64,000 nucleotides of DNA. Origin: Cystobasidiomycetes sp. EMM_F5. Taxonomy: Eukaryota. The position numbers and the translations under genes were made by a program. Positions 487-51,300 of the stretch are shown here, piece after piece. A model generated the notes under the pieces. It made no database searches, was not told where the DNA came from, and saw only the letters and a program-made list of their open reading frames with translations. Positions within the stretch are counted from its first letter, which is position 1, and each line of letters starts with the position of its first letter. The stretch is taken from positions 558,001-622,000 of the forward strand of contig JBPGPT010000007.1 of NCBI GenBank assembly GCA_051047955.1. The letters are read 5' to 3'.

Positions 487-1273
487 GCTCGGCAGTGTGG
501 TGTCAGTAGTGTATGACGCGATATTACGTCCTCTCAGAGTTTCATTCGGTTAGGCGAAAGGGCAGAGCGGACAAAAATGGATCAACCCAATAAAAATCAG
601 TAAAAATGGATCACAAGGGCATCGATCCCTTCACCTCCCGCATGCTAAGCGGCTGTCAAGAGCATTTTAATCAGCTGAACGTTTTTGGTGATCGTGGCCA
701 TGTGCTTACGCGCTCTACCACCTGAGCTAGCAACCCGATGAAAGAGCAGTCTTATTTTAGTATATATATATCCAGCAATTCGCCGGGGAGCGGAAGGCAC
801 GCAACAGCTGCAGGAGGTTTGAAGCGACCGAACTATAGATGGATGTACCCTGGACAGATGATTTACAAGCAGTATATGGGTAAATGCAATCTCGATGACT
901 GAAGTCGCCGAAAGTCAAACAAATCCGGCAAGCCGTAATCAAAAGCACCGCGCAATGGAGCACTTCTGCATTACAACGACTGCAATGACTGTAGACCATC
1001 ATGTACCCGCAAACAACTGAGAAGAACTGAAAGATCTGATATAATCAAAGCCTGACTTGAAGATTCAGGACCACGCACTGTAAAGCAACGCAAAAAGAAG
1101 CATGAACTGCAGGTTGCCGGAAAGCATATGGCTGGACGAAAGATTGCGGCGCCAAGGCTCGCAGTGAGTTTGTGGTCATTCACACCGGAAACTGCGAACG
1201 ATCTCAAGTGACGTCCGGCAGGGTGTGAAAGATACTAATGGGAAATCTGGTCGACAAAATCGGCCAGTCTACG

Positions 1274-4200
1274 CTAGTCCGTATCTTCGGTCATCTTCGC
1301 GTCGACGTGTTCAGTGCTTGCGTTTTCGTTTGTCTCGGGGCGAAGTCCGTGCTGCGGGTCTGGAAAACTTATGCCGATCGAATCGAGGTATGCAAAAATA
1401 GGGGTGGCGTATTGGCTCAGCTGCACTGCGGCAGCTTCGTACCACAGCACATTCGTCAGACGCGGACCACCGCGAGTAGTAGGACGAACGGTCTCTGCTG
1501 TACGAAGTCTGAGAACTGGACTCCACTGCCTAAGCTCCATTTGATCTGTGTTCGGTATTTGCAGCACCAGGAATAGGACGAAATGACCGGGGTGTTCAGA
1601 ATCTTTGCGCAAGCAAGCTCTGCAGACGATGCCATCTTCCGTGACAAATTCCTCTCTCTTTCCCAGTACTCGCTGCAGGTTTGCGGTGACAACCTTGAAT
1701 ACAAACCTTCTGAATTTACCCTCTTCGACAGTACCAGAGTCACTTGACTTCGATCTTTTCTGCACTCGCGCTCGTAATGGTTGGCCTGGCAGGCATATGC
1801 CGTTACCTGGCATTGCGAATAGGACATGCCCATTTTGATGATTGCGCCCGTTGACAACAAGCTTGGCCGGTATCTGCCACCATTCACTTCGTATGAGATC
1901 GACCAGCTGTTTGACGGTCTGGACAGACCTCTGCTTGTCATTCGGACCCCTGATGATTTGCAATGCAGACTGCTGTCCGGAAGATGAGCTTGCTGTGGGA
2001 ACTTTTGAGTTCACGGCGTCAGAACCTATCAGTGTGGCTTTGTTCCAACGTCTGCGCTCCTTAGGCGTGACTCGAGAGGGTGGTGCGCTGCGACCATCTG
2101 GAAGCTGGCGGGAAGTCAGGGACACTGGTACATCATCTGCAAATGGCCCGATATCGTGAGTCTGCCCATTAGCAGAGAGCAATCTGCGGTGCCCGCGCAG
2201 TCGACCGAGTGTGGCCCATCTCCGGTGACACGTCAAGCATTGGTACGTTCGCCGAAAGCCTGCGCGTTGTCTGTCGCGCCGGTCCCACGCCGACTGGCAT
2301 ACCTGCGACTCGGTGTGCTCCCGTAGAGCAGGCCTGTGTGAAAATGTTTGACCACATCCACACTGATGGTGGCGCGAAATATGCCTGTGCAGCTCCTGCC
2401 GTGTAGTAAATGATTCACTGCGTGGGGGCTGTCGAAGTGCACAGTAGTCGCAAGCGTGCTCGCGTAAACCGGAATGTTCAGCATGATGATGACGATCGTG
2501 GTCATGCTTGCTCCTTGTTGTGTATCCGCAATTGTGCACATTGCAACGATAACCATCCGTTCGGCCGGTCAGACGGACAATGTCATACGACGACAGCGGA
2601 GCTGGCCGGAGCGCGTGACGCCGGAGTCTATTGCGTCCAATACGCCCACCGACGGAACTCCCGACGCACAAGCAAAGTCTAGCCAGCCGCCCCATCCTGA
2701 GAGATCGTGCGAACGTCACGGCAACCGCAGCGGTGTCCAAACCGCTCGACTCTTCCTGAACAAATGTGGGAACGGCATCGCTAGCGAGCTGCCTTGCGAT
2801 AGTCCGAGCTGTAGTCATGCGCATACCTCGTCGCAAGTCTCCGATAAACACTAAGTAATCCCGTGGGGTAGAATGGGGAGTACCGCCCAGGAGGAGCAGT
2901 TGCAACTCGGATGGAGTGCTAAGCAGAGTATCGGCACTAGGGACGGATAAGGACACTACACGTCCCGCTGCAATGGAGTCAATGAGGTCTCGGATAGCGC
3001 CGTCGGGATACGAAGGGGCTGAAAGCAAGTCGTCAAAGGTGGAGAGTGTACTGCCGCCGAAAGCGACAAAGAGCTGAGAGTCACCATCCTGCCAGACGCC
3101 CGAAATACCTTTGCGATGTTGGAGCAGCTGGTTCTGGGCATAAGTAGACGGATCTCGAGTATCAACAGAAGCACCGAACTGCTTCGACCAGTTCGAGAAA
3201 CGAACGACGATGGCATGAACGCCTCTGAAGTGCCTCCCCGCTGGAGCTGCAACCTGCATCGGCGAAGGCAGACTCTCGAACCCAATGCCAGAAGCTGGGT
3301 GGATTTTGAGAAGCACTTCTAAATCGGTTTCAAGGTGCGAGAGATTCTCCGCTTGGGTGGACAGCAGCTCATGGTGTACCACCTTCTCACCGTCTTGAAA
3401 TGTGTCCGTGCTCGAGACTGAATTGCGATCACGAGAGCCTAGAACGCTGCCTACTCCCTGTAAGCGCCTCTTGAGGAGTCCGTGCCTCATGTCCGTATAA
3501 AATTTCGATGCTTCTCTGTGTGGATGACTCCCCGGGTCCGCAATGTGAAGTATGAGAGCCCGCGCACCAAACTCGTATGACGGAAAATCTTCGTTGTCGA
3601 TGGTGTCCTCGTACAGGGGGTGTACATCTATCACAAAGTCTGGAATGCACTCATAATGAAGGCCATTTAGGTCTCCACCATCGCCCATGAGCAAATGATG
3701 GAGTGCACCCGGATCGACTAGTAGGCCATCGCCAGAAGTGAGAATCAGCCGCTTGATGGCATACTCTGCTATGAGTCGGACCAGCGAAGATGGTCTAGAC
3801 ATGACAGGCAGCGTTACATCGCACTGCTCGTCAAAGAATGCCTCGATACCACTGAGGGCTGATCGCTGTACGACAATTATCGCAATCTGCTGCATGGTGA
3901 CCAGCGGGTCGATGGCTTGAATGTATATAAATGTGGAGACACGCTGCGCATTGATGTAGTCTGTCCAGAAAGTCTCGTCCTGGTTTTGGCAAGCTGAGAA
4001 CCTGATGACTCGAACATACATGGAACCTTCAGGGCAAGGCTCAAGAGGGAGGAGATCAATTGGGGAAAGAACTGGAGACACAGAGAAGGGGGAGATATGG
4101 TTGACGAGATTGAGGAGTCTGTCAATGTCAGTGTGTGCTAGTCTGATGTAAGACCCTGGGGGATCTGTGTCCAACTGCAGACCGTCTGTGTCCGCTTGAT

Positions 4201-5730
4201 CGATCACGGGCAAGTCGCCGTCTAGATCGTCATGGTCAACTCCGAGCAAGTCAGTATCCGTTGCGTGTCCACTGTCCCTCAGATGCCGAGAGCCTGCTAC
4301 TGCTCCTTCCCTGAGAGCTTCGAAGTGACCGACCGTATCACTGCCAGATCTGTGCAGCAAGATTTCGGGGAGACTGGATGGATAATTCATCGTAAATGCT
4401 TGTGTACCAGGCTGTCCGTTATATGACTGATAGACCACGAGGCGGCGTGCGTGAGCTAGTGCTGCGACAGCAGCCCCAACCAGTGTCATGTCTGCTGCAA
4501 ACGCGCCTGCAACATCACCCTGTACGCCAGCGTCCGTTTGCAATGTATTTTCCAATTGCAACAAGTCTGCTTCGAGTATGGGAGCTTCGAGACGGATGCC
4601 ATCATGGTCATCTACGACGGAAAGCCATGCATGCTCGCTTAATAACAAGCGTATTTGCACCAGGCCTGTCTCCCGGATGAAGTCCAGAGTTCGCTGGCGG
4701 ATGTCTTGCACACGTGCAAAGTTGCCATGGATTGACAAAGCCATCGCCGCCCATCCGCACAGGCCCTCGCCGGGATTGTTTACCACGCGTGAGAGGGCAC
4801 GCTGGTCTCGGTTGGAGTACGAGACGAATCTGGGCTCGATGTCAAAGCGGGACATCCAATGCGTGGACTCCTGCCGGACGTTCTGAGCGGGAGGTGAGGG
4901 GAGTTGCGATGATCTTCCGACAAGTTGTTTGACGGCAGGAGCGATACGAGAGACGGGTACAGCTTGGTAGAGAGGAGCTGGTTGCGGCACGGGAACCCAC
5001 ATAGGCACGAACCCTCTGGAAGTTACTCGGAAATGGAGAGACGGTTCCGGAGCATCGGTGAAAAGTGCGAAGTCAGGAAACAGTGAGTGTTGCCTGTCAT
5101 CTACGTGAAAAATGACATTGCGCCCGAGTACTGAGATATATGCCGATTCAGAGTAGTAAGAAGTGTGTGCAATGCGCTAGCTCACTGTAGCTCGCTGCGA
5201 CTATCACGTCCAGTGACAAGCCATCGTTTGTGCTACTGTCTGATAAACGATAGAACACAGTATCCAGAATAGCTGATATTTTGTCATAGTCCTTGAGGTC
5301 ACCTGTAGCAGCAAGGATAATCATTGCGCGCACGTCTGAGATAGCTGGGGCAGTCGGTGATAAAGTGAAGGAAACCGGTCCAAGATCCCCACCGGGGTCG
5401 GCGTCAGGGATCCAATGGCCATATTCTGATGCGGGTCGTAGATATGGCGGCTCAAGAGTGTCATCGAGGCACAAGGAGCGAAACAAAGCATGGACCTCTT
5501 CGAGTTGCGCTTGCGCAGGGACTCGGAATTCGGAGTAAAGTGAGGAGTCAGCGTACGGAGTGTTATTCCGAATTGCCAGTCTGATACAACCAGAATAAGT
5601 GCTCTGAAGCGTTGCCGCAACATTTGACGTACACTCCTCTCAGCCATGATGGATTTCCTGGAAAGTCCCAAACATTCCGGGCAATCACGCCAGAAAGCCA
5701 AAAGGATAGCGTGACCAGAAGCGAAAGCAT
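1274..5730 (-). CDS. 1449-aa multidomain protein: degenerate OTU-like + OTU + 2x serine-recombinase-like + C2H2 zinc fingers
   Basis: Exons 5730-5633, 5580-5186 and 5130-1274 splice in frame across 52 and 55 nt GT-AG introns. OTU motifs PGEGLCGWAAMA...GHFEAL. C2H2 fingers CNVHNC..HDRHH, CDYC..HISRH, CGCG..H and CLTC..H at ~2550-2170. Confidence refers to the CDS; the recombinase call is weaker. Confidence 0.8.
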
Positions 5731-6796
5731 TGTGGTCGCAAACTCTGGTTGTCGAGCGTATGCAAAATGCCGAGCTGATTGTTGGAGTAAAGAGAAGTAG
5801 CCTTAAGCTGGAAATTGTGGCAAATCAAACATGCTCGGGGGAACTGGCGCATGAACTGAGTAAGAGCTGAGACGGAGCTGAAACGGCGCTGTAGGCTATC
5901 ACTGGATGTACAGCCATACAGGGGGCAAGATCTGACAGCTTTGTGCGCCGACTTCAAGAATACTGTAGCTGAAATCTGACATATACGATCATAGCATAAA
6001 CCTGGTATGACAATCACAGAGAGATAGAGTGCGTTCGAGGAGGGCCGATGTCCACATCCAAGCGTAGGTGTGAATGCCGCGTGGAATCTGCGAAGAATGT
6101 GGAGCAGGAAACCATAGGCATTTTAGTAATACTGGTTGATGATTCTGACTGCTAGGACGCCATTCAACTGACCAAGACGACTGAAACGTATGAGATTACT
6201 CGTGAGTAAATCTCCGGCGGTTGGAAGTCTGAGCCAACAGATGTCCCAATCGGGATAGCTGAAATAAGAATCATAGAGCATACTGCAAACTGTCGGGTAT
6301 ATCAGACGTTGAAGCACAGCAGGGATCTCGTAGATAGATTAGACTGACAGCACAGGGATAGGTTAGATGAATAGATTCGGGATTCGATGTACGACGAGCT
6401 GAGATGTGTCTGAAACATTGAAAAGACTGCGAGAGACAGCGAGACCCGAAGAAATTCCACGGAAACACACGGAGAGAGTCAGCTGCGCGGCTATACGCAT
6501 CAACAGTAGCGTCTACGAAACTGACCGTCTGCAGAAGAACGTTATGGGAGTAGCTGAGAGAGACCAGGATAGAAAATGCCAGCAATCAGGCTGATCATTG
6601 GACATATGAATCGCAATCCAATTTGAGTTACTGCTTAACAATGAATCGCCCAAGAGTCAGTTCATGATGTTTGATATGCCGCGGCAATTTGCGACGAACC
6701 CGATGAGCAAGAGCTGAGAGATCGCAGAGGCTGCTGAGAGGCAAAATGCGGTATTGACAGACTGCCATCTGAACAGCGGAGGCGCTGTTGCAGTAT

Positions 6797-9347
6797 TTAC
6801 GTCCGCCAATGACGAGTGAAGCGTCCGCGCTTATGATTACCGGTGACCGGAGGCCTACGAAAACGAGGATTGTTCTGTGAGGCGCCAGACCGATTCAAAC
6901 GCGACAGCAGGGGACTGGGAGGACGTTCGTTGAACGTTGGAAACTGTCTCGGCGTCTGCACCATCGGTTGATGGCGATCTGCTAGTGCAGCAGGATGAGC
7001 TTCAGCCGTGGGTGGATGTACAATCAGGCGGTCAAGCTGCTGTCTCCACACTGTAAATTCCGTCAGTCGAAGTCTGGCAACTGCCAGAATCGACTTACGA
7101 TCCAAGTGAATGCGTCTGTCCAAGCTTTGTGGCACTTGCGCTTGCAAATCTGTAATCGCGGGGAGCATTTCGAAGCGAACGTATCCGCGGAGTGTACTGA
7201 TAGAAGAATCGACAGAGGTATCGCGAACAAGGTAGACGAAGTGACGAGTATAGAGATATGCTTCCATTTCTGCCTGAGCTGCTGACAATCCGTGCTTGCG
7301 ATGGTCTAAGAATGACTGCATCATGTCCAGTAAGCTGTAACGTGTTCACCAAGTCAGCCCCCCTTCCCTTACCGTATGATAGCCAGAGGACTCACGTTAC
7401 AGTCTTCAGCATGCGAGCTCGGTAGGCATCAGCAGCCAACATTCCGGTCCAATCTGCAAGCTGTTCAGCGTTTGCCGAGTTGGGCATGCGAATGTTCTCG
7501 TGAAGGCGGGCCAAGACTTTGGCGACGTTGCCAGCCACATTCCCTCCAGGAGCCTCATAACACTGTGCCAGAAGTAGCAAAAGGTGATGGTTTGCCCTGT
7601 CTTGAGCAGTATCTTCGGGTGTCGGAGCGGACATGTGATGATCCAACAGCAATCTGTATGTCATGGCTGCTTGAATTTCCATTCTCATACTAGTATCCAG
7701 AGAACCGATACGGGCTGCTGTCATTGCCTTGGCTGCGTCGAGGTCGCCTTCACCAACTAACTTTGCGCGTAATTGTTCGGTAAACAAGGCGAAAGACTGA
7801 GCAAGGGACAAGGAGTGCGGCCCTGCTTGGAGAAGAAGCTGTAGGTCTGCTTTGAGATTGAACGGCTTGACTGCCGCCATGGAAGCCAAGATGGGTTGCG
7901 ATACGAATGCTGCCGTGGGGGACACATTAGAGATGAAAAGTTGGGGAACTGTATCACGCGAATGCGAAGCAGCATGTGCCCGAGATTGCGACAGCGGTGT
8001 TGATGCCGATTGGCCTAGAATAGCATGCTGCGGGGAGTTCTGCTGGAACGATGCCGGATAGCCGCAGGACCGTTGAGGAGATTCCGATGGCAAGATGGCA
8101 CTGTTCGATACCGTATTCAAGCGCACATAGTCTTGAGTTGCCAATTGCACTCCTCCCCGGACAAAGTCCGCTTTAGAGTTGCCGTGGACATCTTTCGGCG
8201 AATCTCGTTCATCGAAAACCGGACGTCCTAGGGAAGCGGCGGAAGACTGTGGTGGATACTGGGAAGTAGATTGCGGAATAATGTGTGCTGCTCCTGAATG
8301 GGCATGCTCCATGACATTGCCCAGCATTTGCATCGGATTACCGGTTTGAGCGGATTGAGCGGGTTGCTGAATCGCACCGGCCATTCCTGCATGATTTAGG
8401 ATGGGGAGGTTGAATGCAGGTTTAGGATGTTGTCCATGCATACTTGACTGATTTGACAACTGCAAGGTAGACTGTCGAAGGTTGGACGTCTGTGCGGGAT
8501 GACGATTTCCGCGTTTGAAAGCCATGACATCAAGCTGTGTAAGCTGAAATCATTAGCCGGTGTAGAGTATGGCGTGCGACTCGGCGCCTCACCAGTTCTG
8601 AGTGTATTGCTCCCGCGGATGCCCAACGATGTTCTGCTCTATACGGAACTGAGACCACTTCGAGAGCTCTGAGAGCGCTGAGAATGCCGATAGCATCAGG
8701 CTGAGATTTCAGAAAGACTATCAAGATGTTCATGGGCTGTGTGCCTGTAATCCTCTCAATGCGAGAACGAGCTGAAGCAAGAGCTGCGGAGTATGCTAGT
8801 AGGCCGTTTTTGAAGTAGCTGACCAGATCTTTGGCATTGACGACGCCCGGCTACGACACTCGTCAGTAGGATTGCGGAGCGCGCTATCGCCAACTGGAGA
8901 TGCTCACGGGCACAGACAAAATGACTCCGGCAGTATAACCGAGGCGTCGAAATGTCTCATCCAGGCGGGCCTTCAATTTCATTCAGTCAACGTCCAATGT
9001 AAAGACTACTAACGCGCGTCTTACATGCGCTGGCTCAACATTGATGCCAATGACCTGCTCGTGAAAGGACATGAAATTACGGGGCGCATCGTCGTGAGAC
9101 CACTCAACGAAAGCTGCAGGCATGAGATTAGCGCACTAGAGCGCACAATTGCCGTGCATAGGCAGAGGGACATGCCTGTTTCCCAATTAGTAGTCGAGTT
9201 CACGGAGCGGTACGAACAGACTGGACCCCATTGAGCGGCATAGTTACGTAGCCCGCCTTGTTCGTAGACAGAGCGTCCGACGTCGGACTGGGTACTCAGA
9301 CGCACGCGAATGTTGTAGATAGAGAGCTGCCTGGTAGGACAATGCAT
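6797..9347 (-). CDS. 755-aa divergent RRM-like protein with Q/S/P-rich linker, helical C-terminal region and Arg-rich tail
   Basis: Six exons (9347-9176, 9113-9025, 8970-8908, 8850-8593, 8543-7396, 7334-6797) are phase-compatible and join ORFs 7392..8525 and 6797..7324. RNP2-like PTRQLSIYNI and RNP1-like ETAFVEW. Intron 1 needs a GC donor. Confidence 0.7.
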
Positions 9348-9435
9348 CGTCCAATATTCCAGTTGTCGAGTGCGTACTGAGCTGAAATAACGCCAGAATG
9401 TGCAGAGGCAGAAAAGGGCGAGACGACGGTATCAG

Positions 9436-9470
9436 GAGCAGAGCAGAGCAGAGCAGCGCAGCGCAGCGCA
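9436..9470. repeat. Pentanucleotide microsatellite (GAGCA)4(GCGCA)3
   Basis: Directly visible, ~90 nt upstream of the RRM-like gene ATG. Confidence 0.9.
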
Positions 9471-9722
9471 AGAAATCCGCATTAGTACTGCCACGGCTTT
9501 GCACGCAGCTGGCAAAAGGCAAAGATCGGCTAAGCCTGCTTGTGGCGACACGAGGCTATTTGCAATTAAGCAGGAAACAACGGAGGCAGACTGCGGATGT
9601 CGATGAAGCTGTCTATTTGCGCACTTTCGCTTACGAGATTTGTAGCATAGCTGATCAGACTGAGATTTCCCAAACAAAGAGAGCATCGAAACGACTGGTC
9701 GGAATGAATGAGAGCTGAAGAC

Positions 9723-11314
9723 TTACGAAAAGTGAGCGAGTATAGCATGGACGGCTGCCTGCCGTGTTTCATGGCGATGTACATGTGGTTCCAGACCCAT
9801 GTAGTCCACAAAACTGTGCCAGTTGCGTTCGCCGACAGCATGAGCACGGTCAGATGGCACCTCTGCACGCCGAACGAGAGAGAGTATTAATCCCCTGCCT
9901 TGACCTTGTATGGTAACTTCCTTGCCGCAGCGAGAAGCACGATGGATATACGAGATGGCATCGGTAGGGAGGTCCCAATTTATGATGAATCGCAGTCCGA
10001 CAGGATTGAGTCCACGATGTGTGATGTCGCTGGATACCAAAATATGATTCGTCTCCACGGACTCGTTAAACGCTGCCCAGGCATGCCGATTGTGCTCCTG
10101 GCCTTCACCTCGGTGGACGACCTCACAGCCCAATTTCTTGCCTAGGGCTCTAATAGCATTCTTGACGCGATTGGCAGTGTCTTTGCGGTAGCAGTATATG
10201 ATGACTTTGGGCAATTGGTTGTCGAATAGAGCACTCAGAAATGCCATCTTTTCATCATGGAGGGCTTCGTTGTCTCGTTCTCTGCCTGTCGTATTCAAAC
10301 GGAGATAGTGGTGATCGCGACGAAGTAGAGCATCGAGTGTTTGCGGGTTCACTACGATTGTTGGAGCGGCGGCAGTTATGCAGGACATCATTGTCTGTAG
10401 CTCATTGGTTTTGGCAGTTGCAGCTGTAAGAATAACTTGGACTTGATGACGGACGGGCAGCAGCCAAGCAACTTTTTCTTCGTTTTCGCCGTTCTTGTCC
10501 GCTTCGTCAAGCCAAACAACGCCATAGTCATCGGCGGAAAATGCTGGAGTTGCATGATCAAAACCGAGGTGATAGGCTTTGCCCCAAGTGCCTAGCACAA
10601 AGCGAGCGATGGATGCCTCCTGATGCATACGGGCGCGATCCAATCGACTAGCGTCACCGTGTATGAGAGCGCTGGGAATGAGCAGTCCTTGCGAGAGTCT
10701 TTCGAAGTCACGGTAGGCCTGCTGTGCGAGGAGAATGGTGTTGAATATGGCGATGACACGTAATTCGGGGTTAGAGACGAGTAGCGCTATGATTCCAATC
10801 AGACTGTCGTAAATAGAAATCATTAATAAAACTCACAAAATTCCCCATCATTTACTTACCAAGCTGTCGTTTTGCGCTGCTTTTCTTCAGCCACTACAAG
10901 GAGTGATTCACCAGACACGATGCGCGGAATGACCTGCTCTTGCAGCGGTGTCATGCGCGGCCAATTCTGCTCTGCGATATTGAGAACCAATAGAGGCGAA
11001 ACGGGGGCCAACAAAGCCGAAAAAGTGGCATGAGACTCAGGGTTTAATTGCACAGTGTTCGGTGGCATAACAAATGGAGGAGGTGGCATGAAGTCGGTGG
11101 CTGGGTCGATGGCAACGCCATGTTGCGGTGATCCTGGCTGAGAGCCCTGATGTGAACCTTGTTGGAAGCCTTGGTTAAGAGCAGGATTATCGTTGTTATG
11201 ATCATCTGCTGTAGGATTAGGTAGCTGAATATTCTGTGCAAGCCATTCCGCGCCGCTCGATGCAGCAGCGGGCGAGTGCGGCTGAGAATGTGTGTGATCC
11301 TGCTGCATGCTCAT
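9723..11314 (-). CDS. 511-aa divergent DEAD-box RNA helicase-like protein
   Basis: Exons 11314-10860 and 10803-9723. Q-motif MTPLQEQVIP, I AEEKQRKT, Ia NTILLAQQ, Ib TWGK, II LDEAD, III AAT, V DITHRGLN, VI YIHRASRCGK. Confidence 0.88.
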
Positions 11315-11510
11315 AGCGAGGGTAGATGGAGATGTAGAAAACCGAGCTGAACGACGACTGAAATAGTTGAGCAATGGGAGTTGCGGTAAACTGCAAAAGC
11401 AAGAAGTGCGTTGGCCGTCAGCCACCCTTTGCTGTGCTAAGCCCAAGCTACGCACCAGGTGCAGGCGGATTGTAAATCGGACGTCCGCTTCGCACTCAGT
11501 CGTCAAGACG

Positions 11511-11590
11511 GAACGGTCAGTAGCTTGCTAGTTTAGTTTCAACGTTGTCGGAACGGTCAGGAGCATGCTAGTATAGTCTCAACGTTGTCG
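11511..11590. repeat. Two tandem 40-bp direct repeats (36/40 identical)
   Basis: gaacggtcagtagcttgctagtttagtttcaacgttgtcg vs gaacggtcaggagcatgctagtatagtctcaacgttgtcg; each contains the palindrome CAACGTTG. Confidence 0.9.
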
Positions 11591-12045
11591 GGCAACGGAC
11601 GGAGCTGAGATGGCGCTGAGATAACGCTGGCATACGACTGAGAGAGAGCTGAAACGTGGCTGACAGGGAGCTGAATGAGAGACGCCTTACCCACTGCAGG
11701 CGACCAAGCAGACATCGGATACCGGAGAGCGCCTTCGAGCTGGATCGTTGGAGGCTTTCGCGGCTGTCCGACAAAAGCGAAGCGGAACGGTATTAGAATT
11801 CCGGAGTGCAGAACCTCGAGCCCAACGTAAGCTGAGTAAGCTGCGTCCAGCGTGCAGGAGCCTATGTCGGCGCTGGGTGTCACCTCGGTAGTCCTTGTCG
11901 GACAAGATGCACGAGCTGCTTCTGCGGTAAGGTAGTCGAGCGCGGTCGCCCTCTCTTTGCTCTGCTGTCAAAGCACTTTCAGCTCAACTCAGCTCCCTCA
12001 GCCGTTGCTCCAATCTCCTCACTTTCAAGCTTTCCACAAAGCACG

Positions 12046-12506
12046 ATGAACCCAGCCGACACCACTTTGGCAAACATTCTGCTCGCAGTGTTGGCGCGCA
12101 TCGACGCGCTGGACGGCGCGATGCAGGCGCAGGCTGCACAGCTGCAGCTGTTAATCGACCAGCAGCGTGAGTCGGCGTTTTGTGCTAAGCGTCCGACGTC
12201 GACGGTGGCTGACTGCCGGACATCTCGTCAGAGACTGGCCCAGCCGGAGCACTGGCTGTGACCAACGCAGAGCCAGCCAATAGCGGATGGGATGATGCTC
12301 CAGCTGTGACCAATGCAGAGCCGGCCAACAACGGAGGTGATGACGCTCCAGCTTCGACAAGCGCAGAGCCAGCCAACAGCGGATGGGAGGATGCCCCAGC
12401 TTCGACCAGCGCAATGCCAGCCAACAGCGGATGGGAACAGGCTCCAGCCGGACCAAGTGGAGGCAGCAGTGAGGGAGCAGGATGGGTTCCGTTCAAGCGC
12501 TATTGA
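12046..12506 (+). CDS. 131-aa protein: N-terminal coiled coil + acidic GW repeats
   Basis: Exons 12046-12166 and 12232-12506 join in frame across a 65-nt intron (GTGAGT, GCTGAC branch point, CAG). Motifs SGWDD, SGWED, SGWEQ and AGW. Confidence 0.8.
12255..12446 (+). repeat. 4 x 48-bp coding tandem repeat (unit ~AVTNAEPANSGWDDAP)
   Basis: Units start at 12255, 12303, 12351 and 12399; many differences between units are synonymous in the + frame. Confidence 0.92.
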
Positions 12507-13408
12507 CGGGCACAGATGGTGCTAAGCCCTAGGTGCGGTGGTCAGAATGTCGGACAGTCCAGCAGTTTCAGACGACAGGGTGACTCTTCAGCTCGCTGTT
12601 GATGTATCGGGAATGTCGATTCGAAGTAGTCTGTCCAGGCTTAGCAGGATGCCCTGGCGGTCCACTCATCTTTTGATTCTCTGCTCCAGAGATCATCCTT
12701 TTGCACCGTATGAGGCCTATACTATGAGCAGACTGTCCTCTCCATATACCTTTATGAGCTTTCCATGTAAATCGCAACTTGGTTGCAAGATATCTTTCTT
12801 CCTCCTGATCCCGGGCCGCCAAGCTGAGAAGACCACTCCCAAAAATACAAGGATGATGGTTGCTGAGCTTCGTTAGCAAGCCTTGCACGGACTCTATCAC
12901 CTGTGCTTGACCAACTATGCGATATTGCCTCCTACAACACTACGACAATCTACAGCTTGAATGAAGACGCAGAACCTGACGGCAGACCAGCCGACTGCGG
13001 TGGTACATTCTCCTTGCGCTTCTTTCCAGTTAGCGCACTCTTTGCCGCCTTGCCTTTTCCTACGACTGTGACTCCTCGCTTGCCAATGAGGCTGTTCATC
13101 GTCTTCTTTGTGGCGCTTCTCCCAAAAAATACGTGACAGCTACAAACCACGTGCCAAACGTCGTCCGCACGTCAACGACGGGTACAGACCGCGGTGAACC
13201 GCTTGCCGCAGCTCGTCTTTCTTCCAAATCATTTAATAATTAACACGACCACAACATGGACAGCTGCAGATCTAGATGAGAACGCTAACTTCTCTGAACA
13301 CTTCTCTTCAGCCCACTGTGCAAACACTGTACCTGCACACCGTTCCTTGTGGTGACGCATCCCGCGACTATCGCCAACCCAACTTCCTGCTAATCACCAG
13401 TTTCAAGC

Positions 13409-28731: not shown

Positions 28732-29944
28732 CTACATGAAAAACGGACATTTTGCTGCTTGCCCCCTCATCTCCGAAGCTCTTGATACAGTGACGTCCAC
28801 GCCCTGATGTCGCAATCGCTCTGGCCCCAGCTGTTCACTAACAAAGCCTTCTTCATGGAAACCTTGACCAGGTTTTCCGTACCCAAACTCACCAATTGCC
28901 GAACAGCCCGCTACGACATACCACGGCTGGAACAGAAACCCTTTCCTCGTAACGACGTGATGACCCTTCTCATTGATCTTTTCCGTTGTTTGCAGGAAGC
29001 CTGGCGGAGTTATGCGAGGGAAAAGGAGATAGCCGCTTACTATACCCTTCAAGGCTAGCAATTTTGGAACGACGAGCGAGAGCAAGCGAGGCGGCCGCTG
29101 CCAGCCGAATGCAGTTCGAGTATGATCATCGATCAGCGTCAAGGCTGCTTGCTTTGCGAATCGTTTCAGGAAGGACGGGACAGGATCGAGGAGGACAGCA
29201 AACGTTGCATCCCCGACTTGCTCATTCGAAGGAGCATAAATTGACTTCTTCTCGCTGTAGCTGTTCGACCACGCCCTCAACTCTGCCAACGTCTGTGGAA
29301 GATTGGTAATGCCCATTCTTGCGCCGACTTCCCGCCAAAAGACAAATCTCGCTTGCTTTTCGAGATGGGTAAAGCTTCTCCACTCGAATTGTTCATTCAT
29401 GTCGAAGGGCTCGCTTACAAACAAGCTGAGGGTGTACTTCAGGTCGTCCTGCGTTATCAGGGATCCATAGCGAGAATGTAGCCAGTTGACTCGAGCGAGT
29501 GCTATAGACCCTCTCTCCTTGTCGATATCGCCGTAGAGCAATTCGCCGACTGCTGTTGCCGTATCTTCTGCTCTGCGGCCTGCAAGCTGCACGGTGGACA
29601 GTTCGGATGTCTTGCACAAGACTGTGCTTATGCTAGGAATGGCATACGTCTTGAACAGAGCAAAAGTCAGGGAGAGGGTGGTTGTCCAAGGGAGGTCCTG
29701 AATGTAAGACGGAGATCAGTTTGGCATGCTAACGGAGCTTGAACACATCTCAGCGTACCCATGAGTGAGACAGCTTCATTATCTCTGCTGCTTCCTTGTA
29801 GTCCATGGCGTCCAGATCATTGACAAGGTGCTTGAACTTTGCCTCGAGCTCGCGTAAACGGACAAAGCGCGCCCGCCTGACGCGGTAGACGCGCATTGCC
29901 AGGAGCAAGCCGGATGCAGCGAACGCCAACAGTGCGTACGCCAT
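28732..29944 (-). CDS. MpaB/rubber-oxygenase-like (DUF2236) ER-bound oxygenase
   Basis: N-terminal TM; FALFKTYAIPSIS, RRAEDT, RVNWLHSRY, DDLKYTLSLF and WREVGARMGI. Confidence 0.87.
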
Positions 29945-42184: not shown

Positions 42185-45100
42185 TCATGCCGTCAGCCCT
42201 TGAACTGTGCAAGCATCCTTCTGACCGACCTCGGACTTGTGGTGCCGCTGTAACGCATCGAGGCGGACAAACATTTGCCCACACGCTTCGCATTGATACT
42301 TCTTGACGCCAGTATGAAGCAGTTCATGGCGTTTGAGATCATGGCGACGCGCGAAGCCTGACATAGACATCAGTACGATGTTCAAGGCGTTTTACGCAAT
42401 TGACTGGGCATCTCACCCTTGTTGCAAACCTCGCACACGAAAGGTTTCGAACCTTCGTGCGATCGTATATGGCCCTTGAGGTTGTATGCGCGAGTAAAGG
42501 TTTCGCCGCAATACTCGCATGCGAATTTTGCGCTGTTTGGGTCTTTGCGCCGGCGACGGGCAGCTTGCTTGGTAGCCTCTGTGGTTTTGCTCTCGAGGGA
42601 TACTTCCCCTTGGTGGGATAGGCCACTATAACCGGATACGTCTGAAACAGCCGATGATCTGCGACGACGAGCATGTACGGGCATGCCCAGTTGTCCGTCC
42701 GGCCAGCCAGCCATATCCTCTTCAAGTGATGCGTAACGGGGCATGCCATCCGGCCCAAACTGATGTTGCATCATCAGAGGATTGAGACCGGTTGGATCGA
42801 ACGCATTGAACTGTCCGGTGGGCATAGGTCCGCCGTATCCTGAATACCCAGGCATAATTTCCGCTGTCTGAGGCATAGAGTACATATTTGAACCATGCAC
42901 CGTTTGGGGGTATCCAAAGTTGAGCTGTGACGGATACTGCGATGTAGGTAATCCGGGCATGGATGAGAAGAGGTTGCCGTCCATACCTAGGAGTGAACTA
43001 GACGAATTTGACAGGTCGAATTGATTGGCATCGGGTTGAGCAAATTCAGACATGGGAGGTGGCATCATTGGTATGTTGGCAAAAGCCGCATTGTTAAAAT
43101 CGTTATATTGCTGGTCGCGGGGACCGTCAATCGACAGGTCGAATTCTGGATTTCGAGGCGAAAAGGTGCTCGAAGTGAAGTCCTCACTGACAGCTCCGCG
43201 ACGGTGCGATCGACCTTCGGCAGCAGACTGAGACCGTCGCATGTCTGCAGGCGTTGGAGGTATCAAAAAGCTTGTCTGACCAGCATTTGGCGACGGTGTG
43301 ACGCTAATATTGCCAGACCGCATATTGGCAGTAGGCATATCGTATGGCGTTCCTCCTGCCGCGGAACGTCGACGGTCTGTGCCCGCTGGACCAACAAGAG
43401 ACTGTCGTTGTTCCTCACCGAGCTGATAATCACTCAAGCCAGTCGGAAGTCCGTTGTCCTGCGGGGCTAAAGATAGCGTAAGACGAGAGAGGAACATTTC
43501 GTCACTGTTACTCGTTGAGCCATCCAGAGCTCGTGGATCAATGGCGGGCAGGGAGTCAATGGTATCTGTGCGTGGTCTTGCGTCGCGATTTCTCGACGAT
43601 GGCCGCTGCCCTTCCGCCTGCTGGCCGGTAGGTAGCCCTGCACTGCTCAACGGAAAGTCATAGGGCTCCTGATTGGTTAGCTGACCAGCTTCAAGAACAA
43701 TTGGTGAAGTCATATAGGTATCTGACTTGCTCCTTTGTCGTCGTCGATACGGACTTGGCCCCTGAAGATCAAGCGTGAGATCCCCTAGCGGCAAGCCTTG
43801 GTTCGGCCGCCGGGCGATGGGTGTGACAATGTCCAGATCCAAGTCGGGAAGACGCGATGCCGGCAGATCCGTCGAATCCTTCCTCTCTTCGGAAGTCTGT
43901 GGTTTGTTAAAAAAGGTAAAGACAGAGTCTAACGCTGCCATTGTCGAGTCTTGCCGTCCCGTAGCAGTACGAGGTACCGCAGTCGGTGTGGCAGTCGTCA
44001 GCATCAGATCTGGGGCCGATGGTATGGCTAATTGAGCCAGAGAATTTGTACGTGCTTCTTTCTGATTGATTCCATGTGGCAGTGGCGGAGACTTGAGTGT
44101 CGGATGACGACTTGGCGAGTCAAGGGCTGTCTCTACGCGGAATGCCGGAGCTCGAGGTGACGGTGAAGGCGATGAGCGCGCAAGTTGCGGAATAGATCCC
44201 AATTCTGGCTCGGAGATGCCTGGCGTCCGCCCATCTGCATGAAGTCTCGGTGATGCGTGCGGAGAAGCTGTAAATGCCATTTGTCGAGCAGCATTCCCAA
44301 GAGAGCGATGCTGATTTTCAGCAAGGGGTGGAGATGCCGAGGATGTGCGTATCGTCTGTTCCCTCGACACAGGAATCGGCATAGGGCTCGGTATAGGCGC
44401 AAACATCATTTCGACTGCCATCTCTAGGCCGTTGCCGGATTCTAACGGAGCCTCACCTCCTCGCAGTTCTGGCGAGCTGTTAAGCGCGCCCCCTGCTCCT
44501 TGACCACTGGGCGCTCCGGAGACGTGCGAGTGCGCGTATCCCGACGCTGAAGACACATCATCCCATTCTCGTTGCTGCTTGACGCTCTCCCTAAACGCCA
44601 GCAAATCTGCACCAGCAAAAGCAGATTGAGGATTTAGTGAAGATGATGCATCTTTATCTGCACCGACTAGTACATCATTCCGAGACTCGGGCGTAGTTGC
44701 TTTCGAGTAGCCTTGTTGTGAATGCGCGCCGTCGGTGTTGTAATTGTTCAGGTTGTTGTAGACGGAAGCAAAGTCATTCTCGCGGTCATCAAAGGAAGAG
44801 TCGTCGGCAAAGGAGCCGGCATACGATGGAGTAGCGTATCCGCGAGAATTTTCATCGTAAACCACGCTCGTTGGATCGAGACCTACGCCCAAGCCCAAGG
44901 CAAATGTACTTGACGAATTGCTTAACCCTGCTCCAGATCCCGCAGCAAAGTTGAACATGCTCTCGAGCGTAGACGACTCTGAAGTGAGGTATGCAAGGGA
45001 TCCAGGCTCTGCAGAACTGCCCATAGCATTCTGATTGTACAAAGACTGGTCGTAAGAACTGCTTCCCGACGGCGGCGAAGCGGCGGTAAGCACGCTGATG

Positions 45101-46044
45101 GGCGGACGTGTAGGTGATGCAAAAGCATTCTGATACCTCTGCGCTTGCACCGGAGGCGAACCGGAATGACTACGCAGGCCTGCCGATCCTGGCGGCGCAG
45201 GTCCGTATCCAGAGAAAGGCGAACTTATACGCTGTTGTTGTTGCTGTTGCATGGCGTTGAGAGATGCTCCTGTCAGCGGAGCAGAGTTTGGTACGTTTTG
45301 CTGGTACTGCATGCCAGAAGGCATTTGCTGCTGCTGTTGCGAAAGATAGTCCATTGACCCAGCGGCTGAGACTGGACGAGACATCGATTGCGGGTCGTGT
45401 GAGCCAGCGCGGTATGGACTGTAGGCATGCTGCTGTTGCTGTTGAGACAGTGGATCTGGCGAAGCCGTATATCCAGCGTAAGACGAAGAGCTGCTTGGTC
45501 GATGATCCTGCGCCATGTAGGGCGATTGTTGCGGCATTTGCTGCTGCATCTGCAGATACGACGACCCTTGCATTCCGCTCGACGTGCGTGGGGCCGGCGA
45601 TAGGTTTGCAATGTCGAAAGTGCTGGCTGTACCCGTGTTTGGGTGCGACATGGAACCACCGGAGTAGTAGGACGGACCTGCTGCGGCCGAGGACGACGAC
45701 GCAGCTATGTAAGCTGGAGAAGCTGATCCTGTGCGGGTGTAGCCCATGAAGCCTGCGGAAGACGGGGGAATGTATGCAGCCGACGTGTGCGACGAGTCGG
45801 AGTTTGTCGACGACTGGCGAGCTGGATGGGAGGTTGCTGCACTTCCGGATGCAGGAGCGTGCATCGGCGACCACGAGCGGGGCATTGGGGGTGTATTGAC
45901 TGTATTGCTCGTCGTCGTTTCAGCGTAGTTTGACTGTGGATTGCCCGTCATCAACGGGGGCGATTCGAGCCGGGATGACTGGGGGAGGCGACTAGGGTCG
46001 TAGTGGGAGTACTGTGAGGCGTATGGCTGGTTGTGGTGCTGCAT
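42185..46044 (-). CDS. C2H2 zinc-finger transcription factor, Crz1-like
   Basis: Long S/Q/P-rich region, then [42 protein letters not shown] and [17 protein letters not shown]; one intron near the 3' end. Confidence 0.85.
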
Positions 46045-46365
46045 GGCTGTTTGTTACCATTAATCTTGATTAATTGCCCTGAAATGGCCGCATTAGTATC
46101 ACCTCTGCCTCACCTCAACGCGACTCCTGCACCCACCCTCAGCCTGCCGTCGTCGTCTTTATCCAGTGCAAGTGTGTGGTCGTCCAGAGGCAGTGAATCG
46201 AGGGAAACAAACAATTGGACGTCGGACGGACGGCCTCAAAGGGAAACATGCGCATGGCAGCCGGGCAATGCAAACATCAACGGGACAGTCTGGCGACCGA
46301 GAAACATTTACTCGCATTCACTTTTGCATCTCATTCTTTCAACGCTCTTTGACTGCCCATCTCCT

Positions 46366-48218
46366 CTACTCGGTGTCCTCGCTCTCAGCAACTGACCTCG
46401 CATGAAGTCGCATCTTGAGAATAACTGCACACGCCAGCACGGCCCCTAACGACACCAGGAAGATGTTGAGGGGACTGCGTGTATGACTCTCATCAGACTG
46501 TGAACGATCGCCGAGCAAGATACAGACACTTACGTATAGTTGCCGTGGAGCTTGCGCTTGACGGCATAGTCAAACCCATACTGAACCAGGGTGAATGCTC
46601 CAGAAGTCGCATTCGCTAGCCCATACACTGTCCCAAACGTTTCGATGCCAATGACTTTGGTAAAGTAGTCAGAGATGGCAGTATACATCAACGGCCTCAT
46701 GATGGTGAAGGCTGTGATGCCGACGAGCTGCAAAGCCACGCTCGCCGTCATTGTCCCGATACCAAAGACCAGTCCGAGGACCAACAGCGCCCCGAAAGCC
46801 GCTGCCGATGAACGACTGTCGAGGAGAAAGCCAATGAACGGTATGCTCGCCACCCCACCGAGGGGAAGTAGCAGTACAAACGCATCGGTGAGCTTGCTTG
46901 CCAGTTGTGCATCCGCAGTGTAAAAGTAGACCTGGTCTGCCACTGTCGCAATGTAGAAATTGATGCGCAGCATGTAGCATACCAGGAACGCTTGCGCAAG
47001 CCAGAACCACGATGTCTTGATCTGTTCGAGCGCAGCTCTGCCCCAAAGAACACCGGTGATTGGGTCTGAATGCGCACTACCTCCGTCCTTTGAGATGTTC
47101 GCATCCGCCACCGGTTTCGCAGCCCATCCATCTTCTGCATCGAGCATTCGCGAGAACTGCGAGTCGTAGACAGACGGTTTGCGATGGATTCCGCCATTCG
47201 GTCGTCTGTATGCTGAGCCGACGCGCAGCATCGAATTGTTTGCGCTCGGAAGAGCGGATCCGTATGTCATGGACCTATTGGCATCTGCTTCTGCTACAAG
47301 AGGCGTCCTCTCGTCCGAAACAGCATCTTCAACATTGTCTTCTGGACCAGCAGCACTTTCTCGAGTATAAGGCTCCGGACACCCAAAGAAGATTTGCCAA
47401 ACAAATATTCTAGAAAGAATGCCTCTTAGCAGTAATCTCCCGCATCGTCGGTCGTAGTGTAGCCTACAGAGCTGGAATGATGGTGTAAAGCCAAAACCAT
47501 TCCCGCAAATGTACGCTGTGTCCGCTCGTTTTATAGATGGCTGCGTAGATGACAAAGGGCAAACTTGAGGCATCGAACGCACCAATGATGGCCGAAAGGA
47601 TGAGGCCGGAACGCTGGATGAGCACGTAAAGTTAGCTTAATTGTCTATATGATTGATGATTTCGGCCTGCCTTGGGGAAGGCGTTGCACAAGTGAAAACT
47701 GGACAGAAAAAGCATTGGTCCACCGATAGCGAGCATGACGTAAGCTGTTAGGAAGGGATCCAGTATCCGTCCGAGACCTCCAGATCTGTCGAGTCCCATT
47801 ACGAAATTGCCAAGCGCAAAGATGATGGCTCCAAGGAGAGAAGTCTTCTGAGGCCCAATGTTGTCCAGAATCATACCTATTGGTAAGGCAGCTAGGTTCG
47901 TTACGACCACAGATACGGTAAATGACAGGTTCAGCTGCAGATCCTGGCTGAGACACGGTCTTCCAGTCTCCCTCGCTGCCTGCCTTGCGGCTTCATCTTC
48001 GCAGTAGTCTTCGTAGACTCCTTCATGGATGAGTACTGGCTTCAGCGCCGCAAAGCCTGGATTGCCAATAAAATCAATTGATCAGTTTGGTCGAGAGAGC
48101 AACAAGATAAGGCCTATCATGCCGCACCAAAGATTACTCCGGCACAGCAAAGCGAGGCTGCCACGGCGACTGTGACCTGTGCAAGGCGCTTCGTGGAAGA
48201 TATTGAAGCTTGCTGCAT
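46366..48218 (-). CDS. MFS transporter, Fmp42/LAT3-like
   Basis: AGVIFGFAALKPVL, ALPIGMILDNIGPQ, MLRINFYIATV and GIETFGTVYG; many TM helices. Confidence 0.85.
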
Positions 48219-48372
48219 GCTTCAGCGCGTCGGCGAGGAAGAACTTGAAGCTGTCGGGCGAGCCGCCACAGCGATAGCGACAAAAATGGGCAGGATCCGA
48301 TCAATCATATAGCGGAGACGGAGAGCAAGCTACAGAACAGACACCACAACGATACGCGCAAAAGGCAAATAA

Positions 48373-51300
48373 TCACTGCGGCTGGAGGCCCAAGGAATCC
48401 ATCAGCATGCTCCACTCGTCCCCGCCCAGAAAAGACGTGACCAAAGGATTGCCAGGCTGACCGATGCCCGTCAACATCTCCGAAAAGCTCGAGGATGGCT
48501 GGTCCTGTAATTGCGGCATACCGTTGGGCGGCATCTGCAAATGCTGTGGTAAGACAAGATGCTGTGATTGCACCTGAGATTGTGGGACAGAGGTGGTCGC
48601 CATCCCCGGTTGCAGGGTCGGGTGTACGTAATTCATGCTAGCAAGCGGAGAGTCGGCAGAGTGGTTCAAGGTTGCATGACCCATAAGAGAATGAGAGAAG
48701 CGAGGCATAGAGCCCACTGGCGGAAAAGGCGGCAAGGATTGATTAGATTGAACAGCTTGGCTCGACGTTGGGTAGACCGCCTGATTCCTGCCATTCGGAG
48801 ACTGGTTCAAGGCACGATCAAGCTCTGGCTGACGCTGCTGCACCTTGACGGTGGCTGTAGCTAGCATTTGGCCAGTCGCTGTTGCCAAAAGCTGTCGCAA
48901 GACCCGGCTGTGGGTCAAGCAGGGATGTCCAGCATTTGGGGCGGCCATCTCGAGAAAGTCGGAGGCTAGTTCAATGACACGAAAAAATTTGCTGTAGAGC
49001 ATAATTTGTCTACCGGACGGCCCATATCTTTCCTGGGGTTTTACCGGAGTCTGAGGTGACACGACGATGAGATTGCATCGCATCAGATCAGCAGCCCGCA
49101 GCTTGGCGAGAAACATTGCCGAGAAACACAGTATGACGCATATGGCCGTATCCACGGCAGTACGGATGTGCCTGGCGTGGTCGACGTCGGGCTCGAATGG
49201 CTTGTACACAGGGAGCCCGTCCTTCCAGTACTCCGGCTGTTCGAATTTAGGCACGCGACGCCCATTGTCTGTTCTCGCTGCCGTAGTGAGGTACATAATC
49301 ATCGTCACTGCTGACTCTACAGCAATCTCCAAAAAGTGTCCTTCTTCCGTGTTGAGGGTCAAAGCCGCCGTTGCTCCAGCTTCCTGGGCAGCTTTGTTGC
49401 GTACAGACCATGTTCGATAGACGTCAGCATTGATGACAAGGCGGTGAAAGGGTGCGATAAATTGCGTGACGAAAGCGCCTTCGACCGCCAGGCGCGGATA
49501 CTGCTGATACCAATACTTTGTAATCGAATCTAGATCACCGTTTGCCCTCGCTAGTGCCGGTATATCTGTCTTGTCATCTTCCGAAGCACCATGAAATGTA
49601 CCGTAGACAGCCGAGACTTCCAACAGCGCAGAGAGCTCGACATCTGTCGCAGCATCACCAATTGCGGCAAATGATCGAGTCACCTGCAGCGTTTCGGCAA
49701 TGTCGAAGCTTGCACCTCGTCCATTTTGCATGCAGCCATGACAATCGACAAAACACATCCATAGCCATAGACGCAGCCTTCGCAAAGTAGCCGGAGATCG
49801 GTCTCCACCTAGAAACAGCCTTGGCGTTGCATATAGCTGATTGACGCGAGCTGCCCGACCGACGATGCCGGCTAAAAAGTATGTCGTCGAATTGTTTAGC
49901 TTCGCCTGGTTTTGCATGTGAGCAAAGTCGGTAAAGACCATTCCTTTAGGCCGTATCCGTGGCATCTTCCATATGATGCAAATGGCTAATCCGAGCACAA
50001 ACTCGTCGTCCAACTCACTCGGCTGTGGGGACATGATGATTGCTACCGGTCAAATTGACACGTTAGCTGAGAAATGCGCCACACAGAGCTTTCACTCACG
50101 CGCAAGCGTCTCATTGACGAGGGATACTAAATTCAAATAAAGTTGTAATCCAGCCTCATCGTTGGGTGCTTCGAGATAGTATGTAGATACGCAGAGGATG
50201 GCTCCGAAAAGGAGAGGGCACGAGACGCGTATCCTGTCGGGATCATCCAAATGACTAGGCACAATACCATGCACCCAGAATCGACAGTGGTCTACGAAGC
50301 TATTTTTGCACATCAGCTTATGTCCGTCGCAATTTGATTGTTTTGCTGACAATGCAAAGTATCGCCTGGCTTGTTCCATAGTCATCAAACCTCTCGATAT
50401 AGCATCAGGACTGAGTGAATTCGGCTGTTGCAGGTTTTGCAGCCCAGCAGAGCCTGGAGCACCAGGTATGGATGGACCTTCCTCTAGCCCTTGGAAGCTT
50501 TCCACTATAGTGCTCATGGGGTTACCCATTCTGCGATGGCTCGCCGCAGCTGTAGCGTCTGGCAATCCAAGATCCAGCTCATCGAGACTCGGCAGGGCAC
50601 GACCCCGCTTTGCAGATCCACTGGAACGATGTGCATAATCTGAGTAGCGGAGGTAATCTTCAATGTGGGCTGTTTGTGATGTTAGCTGCTCAAGCCTAGT
50701 CCGATTGAGGCGGGTCAGCTCTGCGTATTTGCGAATTACAAGCGAGCGTCTCACTTGTTCAGTATAGTCTGGACAGTATCTGGACCGAGAGGAGCGGCGG
50801 AGTAGCTGGTAGGCACTGAGTACTGCGACGAGCCATCATCCGGCGCTTTCCGCTTTACAGCCGTTCGCTGCGGAGCATCTGTGAATATGCATTCTAAGTT
50901 GTATCTGCACCACATATGGTCAGTGGAGAGTTCATATCAGCCCGAACGTGCTCGTACAATTCGCATCTACGACAGGGTATCCTCGATGGGCCTGTGATCG
51001 CCAGAGATGCATTCAGAAAGCCTCTTCAGACATACAGGCCGGTGGAAGACGACCCACCATCGCATCGTTGTTTCGTAGATCTGCCTATGACGATGTAACA
51101 TGGCCGCAACAGTCGCGAGTAGTAGAAACACAGTATCAGTTCCGAACCCGCATTTCATTGTCAATATGTCGATGAAGGAGAACGGATTACGAAGCGTGGG
51201 GATATTACAGGCTCAGCGTGAATCTTCGCAAACGACGTAGGCATGTCTAGCCGTATGCCGATATAGAGCTTGACGCTTGACGCACGTCCGAGCCCCGGGA

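Follow-up and report, generated by a model that had tools for sequence, protein, structure and literature searches.

An oriented, 11-bp-phased TCAGCTC motif in a four-gene island of Cystobasidiomycetes sp. EMM_F5, and a candidate protein reader

What is marked by a seven-letter word that stands before every gene of a small genomic island, always pointing the way in which the gene is read? The question is raised by a stretch of 64,000 nucleotides (nt) of Cystobasidiomycetes sp. EMM_F5 (assembly GCA_051047955.1, contig JBPGPT010000007.1, positions 558,001 to 622,000), referred to throughout as the window, from an intron-rich genome of 18.3 Mb. Here a ubiquitin C-terminal hydrolase gene (Peptidase_C12, E 7e-38) and a CitMHS transporter enclose an island, an 11-kb block of four genes modelled from open frames and splice signals, with start codons at 5730, 9347 and 11314 on the minus strand (g1, g2 and g3) and at 12046 on the plus strand (g4). 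The motif, TCAGCTC on the sense strand, is real, specific to this locus and more structured than first described, and the reading we favour, at a probability of roughly 0.45, is that of a self-recognition array that would be bound by the island's own g1 protein, either to switch on or to shield the island genes.

An earlier note on this DNA had counted 14 copies between 5772 and 11995, 12 as GAGCTGA and two as TCAGCTC, and each was recovered where it had been placed. Its claim of enrichment held, though the word is not rare elsewhere: TCAGCTC occurs genome-wide at ~0.24 per kb (0.235 over 331.4 kb of background), giving 1.49 copies expected (Poisson p 8e-10) and an island that is ~10-fold enriched overall. 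The highest count in 315 overlapping 6.2-kb background windows was five. Within the window, 14 copies fall in 5600–12100 against 15 in the remaining 57.5 kb (binomial p 2e-7), and TCAGCTC/GAGCTGA ranks first among the 8192 strand-merged 7-mers when the island region is compared with the rest. When every background window was allowed its own best 7-mer, none of 68 matched the island's p-value, the closest being simple-repeat words such as CCTACGC, GAGGAGG and ACGACGA. Intergenic DNA of the island holds 13 copies, against 0.21 expected from host intergenic DNA (156 kb of strands) and 2.35 from the island's own second-order composition. Motif-rich loci amounting to 160 kb were kept out of every background control, since they had been selected for the motif.

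The orientation is complete, with 14 copies in sense and none in antisense, and it flips, as had been noted, just before plus-strand g4. Two further copies keep this polarity beyond the range first quoted, at 3071 (minus strand, in the g1 coding sequence) and at 12588 (plus strand, after g4). The nearest copies start 48, 38, 36 and 57 nt from the ATGs at 5730, 9347, 11314 and 12046, in line with the ~30–60 nt originally given, and no ATG intervenes in any of the four cases. The phrase “upstream of every island gene” is therefore right in that a copy precedes all four ATGs, but it does not cover the copies in an exon or after stops: 8769 lies inside a predicted g2 coding exon, 9712 begins 5 nt past the stop of the g3 helicase, and 6711 lies ~80 nt past the g2 stop. 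The motif has a wider form, YTCAG(CT), with the core YTCAGCT(C). In 1200–12520, 15 of 20 YTCAGCT copies are intergenic, though intergenic DNA makes up only 2172 of 11233 nt, and the g2–g1 intergenic region (5731–6796) carries 13 YTCAG in sense and none in antisense.

Comparison with the host relied on gene models from a gene finder self-trained on 664 kb of this genome; its first pass recovered the g1 model exactly, while later passes fused g2 with g3 and added false introns, so that its gene starts are approximate. In codon fit, g1 (0.068) and g2 (0.071) lie under the 5th percentile (0.094) of 196 host models. The suspected island specificity was borne out in this in-silico promoter comparison, with TCAGCTC found 80 nt or less from the ATG in 2 of 188 host models and in all four island genes. 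The sense bias is absent from the upstream and downstream bins of 191 host models, and a general host promoter motif is, within the limits of self-trained and imperfect models, ruled out. Nor were other motif-rich islands found: at 16 loci, picked from 29 double-motif matches and 100 listed triple-core matches in the genome, YTCAGCT reached at most nine copies per 10 kb, while 6.35 kb of the island hold 19, and these loci lie mostly among ordinary-looking genes. Two of the loci have copies directly before long host frames, in sense (G000:C113:119355-119397 and G000:C157), which provide no test because the loci were selected for the motif.

A second layer of order lies in the spacing. The core YTCAGCT(C) builds direct-repeat arrays with a period of 11 bp, the repeat finder returning start-to-start spacings of 11, 33 and 44 bp. 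Island intergenic DNA contains 16 TCAG pairs spaced 11, 22 or 33 bp apart against 1.8 expected, a count reached in none of 2000 permutations, and in the same test periods of 8–10 and 12–15 bp show no enrichment. In a best-of-all-4-mers phasing control the island scored 9.6, and 67 host windows at most 5.0. The phasing survives removal of the main array (6 vs 1.4, p 0.004). Units of the main array are 93% identical in the core and 41% in flank and spacer; cores kept while spacers diverge are as expected for selected sites. Across the genome this phasing is absent, with 65 YTCAGY pairs at 11 bp and 66 at 13 bp, five of the 65 falling in the island; at 11 bp, 191 host upstream regions are not enriched either (3 observed, 2 expected). 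Ten triple arrays occur genome-wide (reversed-pattern control 5), three of them in the island. The motif-bearing features of the island are, from right to left:

11976–12003, plus strand: three-copy cluster (11979, 11989 and 11998) before the g4 ATG, where the polarity flips.
11601–11677, minus strand: main array of seven 11-bp units in the divergent g3/g4 intergenic region, from register and permutation test and repeat families D2 and D3; TCAG at 11674, 11663, 11652 and 11641, CCAG at 11630, 11619 and 11608.
11509–11591, minus strand: tandem duplication of 40 bp directly next to the main array; in both units CGACAAC overlaps the palindrome CAACGTTG (repeat family D6).
11343–11364, minus strand: 11-bp doublet, TCAG at 11361 and 11350, 47 and 36 nt before the g3 ATG.
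9650–9721, minus strand: copies after the g3 stop, TCAG at 9718, 9663 and 9654, the first two 55 bp apart.
9362–9388, minus strand: proximal element of g2, TCAGCTC followed by CGACAAC.
8598–8825, minus strand: TCAG-rich stretch in predicted g2 exon 4, with copy 8769 and a 9-bp-period repeat at 8662–8683.
5896–6796, minus strand: long g2–g1 intergenic region with dispersed sense copies, an 11-bp doublet (6413/6402) and a 33-bp pair (6557/6524).
5852–5895, minus strand: second array of four 11-bp units (ACAG 5892; TCAG 5881, 5870 and 5859), 130–165 nt before the g1 ATG.
5748–5781, minus strand: proximal element of g1, TCAGCTC followed by CGACAAC.
1011–1055, minus strand: four TCAG cores spaced 9–16 bp, downstream of g1 and close to the left host boundary.

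The second word, CGACAAC, trails the motif before g1, g2 and g3, 16–24 nt downstream, and has four intergenic sense copies against 0.2 expected; it was noticed post hoc, and its p-value is therefore uncorrected. Of 14 matches to the bipartite pattern genome-wide (control 13), three lie in the island. The 5' leaders of g1 and g2 (5730–5760 and 9347–9385) share TACGC..TCGACAAC at the same distance to the ATG, and look as if derived from one ancestral leader.

A candidate reader of the array is found within the island itself, as the product of g1:

1274–5730, minus strand: g1, 1449 amino acids, an open spliced frame with introns at 5632–5581 and 5185–5131.
4295–4855, minus strand: predicted OTU-fold domain with NNPGxGxCG and GHF motifs; model predicted local distance difference test (pLDDT) score 64.8.
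2591–4060, minus strand: two predicted serine-recombinase catalytic folds in tandem; both have R-[FY]-S and close with a long helix that ends GRN or DRN.
2162–2602, minus strand: three to four C2H2/C2HC-like fingers with non-canonical linkers, from a pattern match.

From its N-terminus, g1 consists of a hydrophobic stretch, the OTU fold, the two recombinase folds, the finger-like region, and a C-terminus without assignment. In a structure search with the OTU model, ranks 1–28 were OTU or OTU-containing chains (top Z 9.8, root-mean-square deviation (rmsd) 3.7, 131 residues aligned); the region has no Pfam match, and its Cys is invariant in all five aligned relatives. On the model the domain carries an OTU fold with both the Cys and the His motif. 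A second, degenerate OTU domain in the N-terminus of g1 was considered and found unsupported. For the recombinase region (490 residues, pLDDT 70.8), ranks 1–12 of 48,161 chains were serine-recombinase entries (top Z 8.9, rmsd 4.3, 158 aligned), with the first unrelated fold at 4.8; the matches fall mostly on the second repeat, and one on the first. Foldseek placed the TP901-1 integrase at probability 0.97 (E 0.05), with no E-value below 0.001. The halves can be aligned, both with one another and across three homologues, R-[FY]-S opening all seven aligned repeats and G/D-R-N closing the long helix, although the first of these features is present partly by construction because the repeats were cut at that motif, and the cutting rule missed the second repeat of homologue P0004, which was left out. 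The strand that reads DRLGR in PinE reads DGLL, DTLL, DQFF and similar here, an equivalence drawn by eye, as hhalign to PinE failed. With those arginines apparently missing, catalysis by g1 is doubtful.

The fingers of g1 reach only E 0.096 to Pfam zf-C2H2_4, and those of homologue P0003 reach E 1e-9 to zf-C2H2. By the finger code, fingers 1 and 2 (Arg at +6, Asp/Glu at +3) would presumably prefer GCN/GCT, a weak correspondence with the GCT in GAGCTGA. A HMMER scan of 1.84 billion proteins with g1 found 12: g1 itself, seven matching the middle region, three the OTU region and one the fingers, with a single named homologue, from Cystobasidium minutum. In P0012 an OTU-like C-terminal stretch lies ahead of the first recombinase repeat, and in P0003 clear C2H2 fingers lie behind the second; from these layouts the OTU, tandem recombinase-fold and finger architecture is probably conserved among relatives. 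A hydrophobic, signal-peptide-like start, seen in g1 at 5680–5730, is also present in the OTU relative P0008. Metagenome and viral scans yielded no loci of g1 relatives, the sole locus returned (L042) being a bacterial false positive. The literature covered, largely without subscription papers, yielded no description of the g1 protein family or of the motif.

A second OTU-like orphan gene lies elsewhere in the genome (G000:C199:456900-460704), matching the g1 OTU region at 29%. By eye it has a uracil-DNA-glycosylase-like stretch and repeated TTMSK units after the OTU, with no Pfam match; neither a recombinase nor a finger region was recognised by eye at this locus, nor any comparable or enriched motif. 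It sits among small orphan frames, beside a (GGAGCGTA)n repeat.

Short, helically phased direct repeats beside a recombinase-fold protein have a known counterpart. As described in the available part of PMC6188088, four dimers of an IS607 serine transposase (IS1535 TnpA) bind four helically phased 9-bp direct repeats, and IS607 ends resemble the island further in lacking terminal inverted repeats. The IS607 motifs, however, lie within ~60 bp of the element ends, whereas the island arrays stand between genes, and the ends of the island could not be defined by repeat search. g1 has two catalytic folds per chain and C-terminal fingers, an OTU domain replaces the N-terminal MerR-like winged helix, the D-R-x-x-R arginines of PinE are apparently replaced (by eye), and the island is single-copy, with spliceosomal introns in its genes. 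No TnpB or Fanzor was recognised by Pfam on island frames, g2 and the g1 C-terminus being without assignment. By domain order and array position the island falls outside IS607, as it also appears to do by gene content. IS607-like serine-recombinase genes are, from the accessible portion of PMC3673617, patchy in eukaryotes and present in 1 of 23 basidiomycete genomes surveyed; they are recognisable by sequence (best 42–51% similarity), whereas g1 is recognisable by fold only, duplicated and fused. PMC4058570, in the part available, gives general active-site context only. The second counterpart is VANC, the sequence-specific anti-silencing protein of Arabidopsis VANDAL elements, which, from the available part of PMC5735166, binds short motifs that pile up through tandem repeat in the non-coding DNA of its element. 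Common to both cases are a short motif amassed, often in tandem, in the non-coding DNA of one element and a candidate reader encoded by it; the island differs in that its candidate reader is unrelated and its motif strictly sense-polarised and 11-bp phased, and no Mutator transposase or VANC was matched by Pfam on island frames, some regions being without assignment.

The likeness to IS607 ends and VANC targets suggests that the motif be read as a self-recognition array for g1, and the 11-bp phasing, together with the serine-recombinase folds of a C2H2 protein, favours binding at the level of DNA. The array may work like both known systems while belonging to neither. The oriented YTCAGCT(C) sites would be the island's self-recognition mark, amplified through short tandem duplication and held at a spacing of one helical turn in non-coding DNA. 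The g1 protein, whole or in a shorter nuclear form, would occupy these sites cooperatively on a single helix face. The DNA would be read by the C2H2 fingers and by the arms that follow the two recombinase folds, and the tethered OTU domain might remove ubiquitin from chromatin or from g1 partners. The outcome would be that the four island genes are jointly activated or protected from silencing. The island itself may be selfish or foreign in nature.

Several observations weigh against this. The GC and CpG content of the island is host-like, protein and 1.2-kb DNA queries recovered only the window and distant paralogues in the genome, and a search for terminal repeats or target duplications gave nothing convincing at the island. 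The long arrays are internal, between genes, and not at element ends; with both removed the phasing is no longer significant (3 vs 1.2, p 0.10), and the plus-strand cluster is spaced at 10 and 9 bp, not 11. The recombinase assignment is by fold only: its Z of 8.9 is near the tool's stated background of 7–8, the Foldseek E-values are 0.05 or worse, and hidden Markov model comparisons of the region with Pfam, PDB sequences and PinE returned nothing. Residues 1–15 of g1 form the most hydrophobic stretch of the model, and such a signal-peptide-like start argues against a nuclear g1 unless a downstream ATG (5002 or 4855) is used. Finally, the strict sense polarity and the copy 36–57 nt before every ATG suit an initiator or an RNA element at least equally well. 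The earlier note had offered an initiator, a transcription-factor site (possibly for the C2H2 protein) and an RNA element as mechanisms, which, apart from one form of the last, are not separable from sequence.

The alternative that survives best, itself unlikely, makes the motif a host RNA polymerase II initiator with the start at the A of YTCAG, the arrays being helically phased starts and CGACAAC a downstream core-promoter element. Initiator-type core promoters have consensuses such as YYANWYY and TCAKTY, and YTCAGY is akin to the pyrimidine-CA consensus. Sense polarity is inherent in such an element, a copy stands tens of bases before each ATG, as in such promoters, with no ATG intervening, CGACAAC follows the motif before three genes with 3 of 14 genome-wide bipartite matches in the island, and TATAWA is absent from the 420 nt upstream. 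Yet the motif is missing from host promoters (2 of 188) and unused by host genes, so an island-specific factor would be needed anyway. It also occurs in arrays and far from starts: a single intergenic region has ~20 TCAG cores over 1 kb, and further cores lie in exons and behind stops; upstream ATGs follow the distal arrays, and the spacing of CGACAAC is not fixed. Self-recognition by g1 and initiation are not mutually exclusive.

A somewhat less probable explanation moves the motif into RNA, and involves the remaining genes:

6797–9347, minus strand: g2, a 756-residue orphan, an open spliced frame with five introns, one of them GC-AG.
9723–11314, minus strand: g3, a 511-residue divergent DEAD-box helicase with one intron (Pfam Helicase_C 4.7e-15, DEAD 2.2e-8).
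12046–12506, plus strand: g4, 131 residues with one intron, a short helical N-terminus followed by 16-residue repeats with SGW/GW.

UCAGCUC in 5' and 3' untranslated regions would here be bound by g2, as an RRM-like protein, with the g3 helicase and the g4 GW protein as partners; transcripts of the island would thereby be singled out, either to be spared RNA silencing or to be channelled into it. Polarity would again be complete, copies lie both before starts and right behind stops, and three of the four genes look RNA-related. The N-terminal 200 residues of g2 are RRM-like by eye only; a host-RRM profile was not significant (hhalign E 0.003, probability 9.5%; hmmsearch score below shuffled controls), g2 has no Pfam match, and no homologue was found for its C-terminal exon. 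For g3, homologues among 5.8 billion proteins were confined to its own cluster. It retains, in 10400–10900, a Q-motif-like stretch, DEAD and motif VI, and EEKQRKT replaces the glycine-rich Walker A, so that its ATPase may be impaired. g4 has no Pfam match; its SGW-containing units, which resemble Argonaute hooks, are encoded by a 48-bp repeat of 4.2 copies (12255–12456). Searches for homologues by word matching brought up nothing beyond the window's own proteins, and a protein atlas gave zinc-finger leads below 0.9 only or no usable match. Against the RNA element, it is hard to see what an 11-nt period would mean in single-stranded RNA, the arrays fold no better than shuffles (z -0.9 to +1.1), the main array, 290–360 nt upstream of the ATG, may lie outside the transcript, and no Rfam match was found at E up to 0.5. 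Separately, a (GAGCA)7 microsatellite occupies 9436–9470 in the g3–g2 intergenic region.

Lower again stands the capture by the island of a host programme, in which a transcription factor with a small regulon (developmental, for instance) binds phased TCAG sites. Seven triple arrays lie outside the island, three of five inspected falling in predicted divergent host promoters, and the one at G000:C221:29715 fits the island matrix with a score of 20.2, against 11.3 for the best match in unselected DNA. Seven, however, is close to the reversed-pattern control of five, two of the five inspected arrays are inside predicted genes, the 191 host upstream regions have no 11-bp excess, and chance, or binding of g1 to host targets, could explain such arrays equally well. 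The C221 locus (29715-29740) has three TCAG units at 11 bp and lies in a predicted divergent host promoter, ~250 nt upstream of a gene start. At G000:C179:144713, in the 5' part of a predicted UBA1-like gene, about six TCAG/CCAG units stand near 11-bp spacing; on that gene's strand they read CTGAT/CTGAC, like branch sites.

The least probable of the readings still standing is that the repeats arose by neutral slippage on a sense strand rich in pyrimidines and have no function. The intergenic sense DNA of the island is 59% pyrimidine, it contains other tandem repeats, and two arrays account for most of the phasing, but the same core recurs at separate sites and is kept where spacers diverge, 13 copies exceed the 2.35 predicted from local second-order composition, and one copy stands at a similar distance before all four ATGs. 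A 3' splice acceptor, the form of the RNA proposal that fell, is ruled out, as a CTRAY branch site stands 6–32 nt before the AG in 51% of 1074 predicted acceptors and 8% of random YAG but in none of the 27 intergenic copies, even though YTCAG is a valid acceptor in this genome and ends two island introns (5131–5134 and 8544–8547).

Returning to self-recognition by g1, a more far-reaching version can be framed, although taken as a whole it is doubtful: that the island belongs to a class of intron-bearing mobile elements of fungi not described before. At its centre would be a serine recombinase that forms a pseudo-dimer within one polypeptide and is fused there with an OTU protease and zinc fingers. 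A g1 filament, nucleated on the 11-bp-phased arrays, would both switch on the genes of the element and organise recombination, the CGACAAC/CAACGTTG palindrome beside the main array might serve as a crossover-like site, and the DEAD-box, RRM-like and GW proteins would be counter-silencing cargo. Two long arrays in direct orientation flank g2 and g3.

Elsewhere in the window, 42382–50034 holds large minus-strand frames, one of 1220 residues with C-terminal C2H2 fingers and two of 347 and 553 residues without Pfam matches.

Large fungal elements generally depend on tyrosine recombinases or DDE enzymes, and the serine recombinases of eukaryotes are mostly known from genes derived from IS607. What gives the locus its main value is that a DNA code phased at 11 bp occurs together with an undescribed protein predicted to join OTU, tandem serine-recombinase folds and zinc fingers. 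As both the array and its candidate reader are defined to the base, binding, phasing and catalysis are directly testable, and a compact, oriented motif–reader pair could possibly serve as an orthogonal promoter tool. If the reading is true, the island would hold either a recombinase turned transcriptional or anti-silencing factor, or a new class of element, and self-recognition of the kind found in VANC would extend to fungi.

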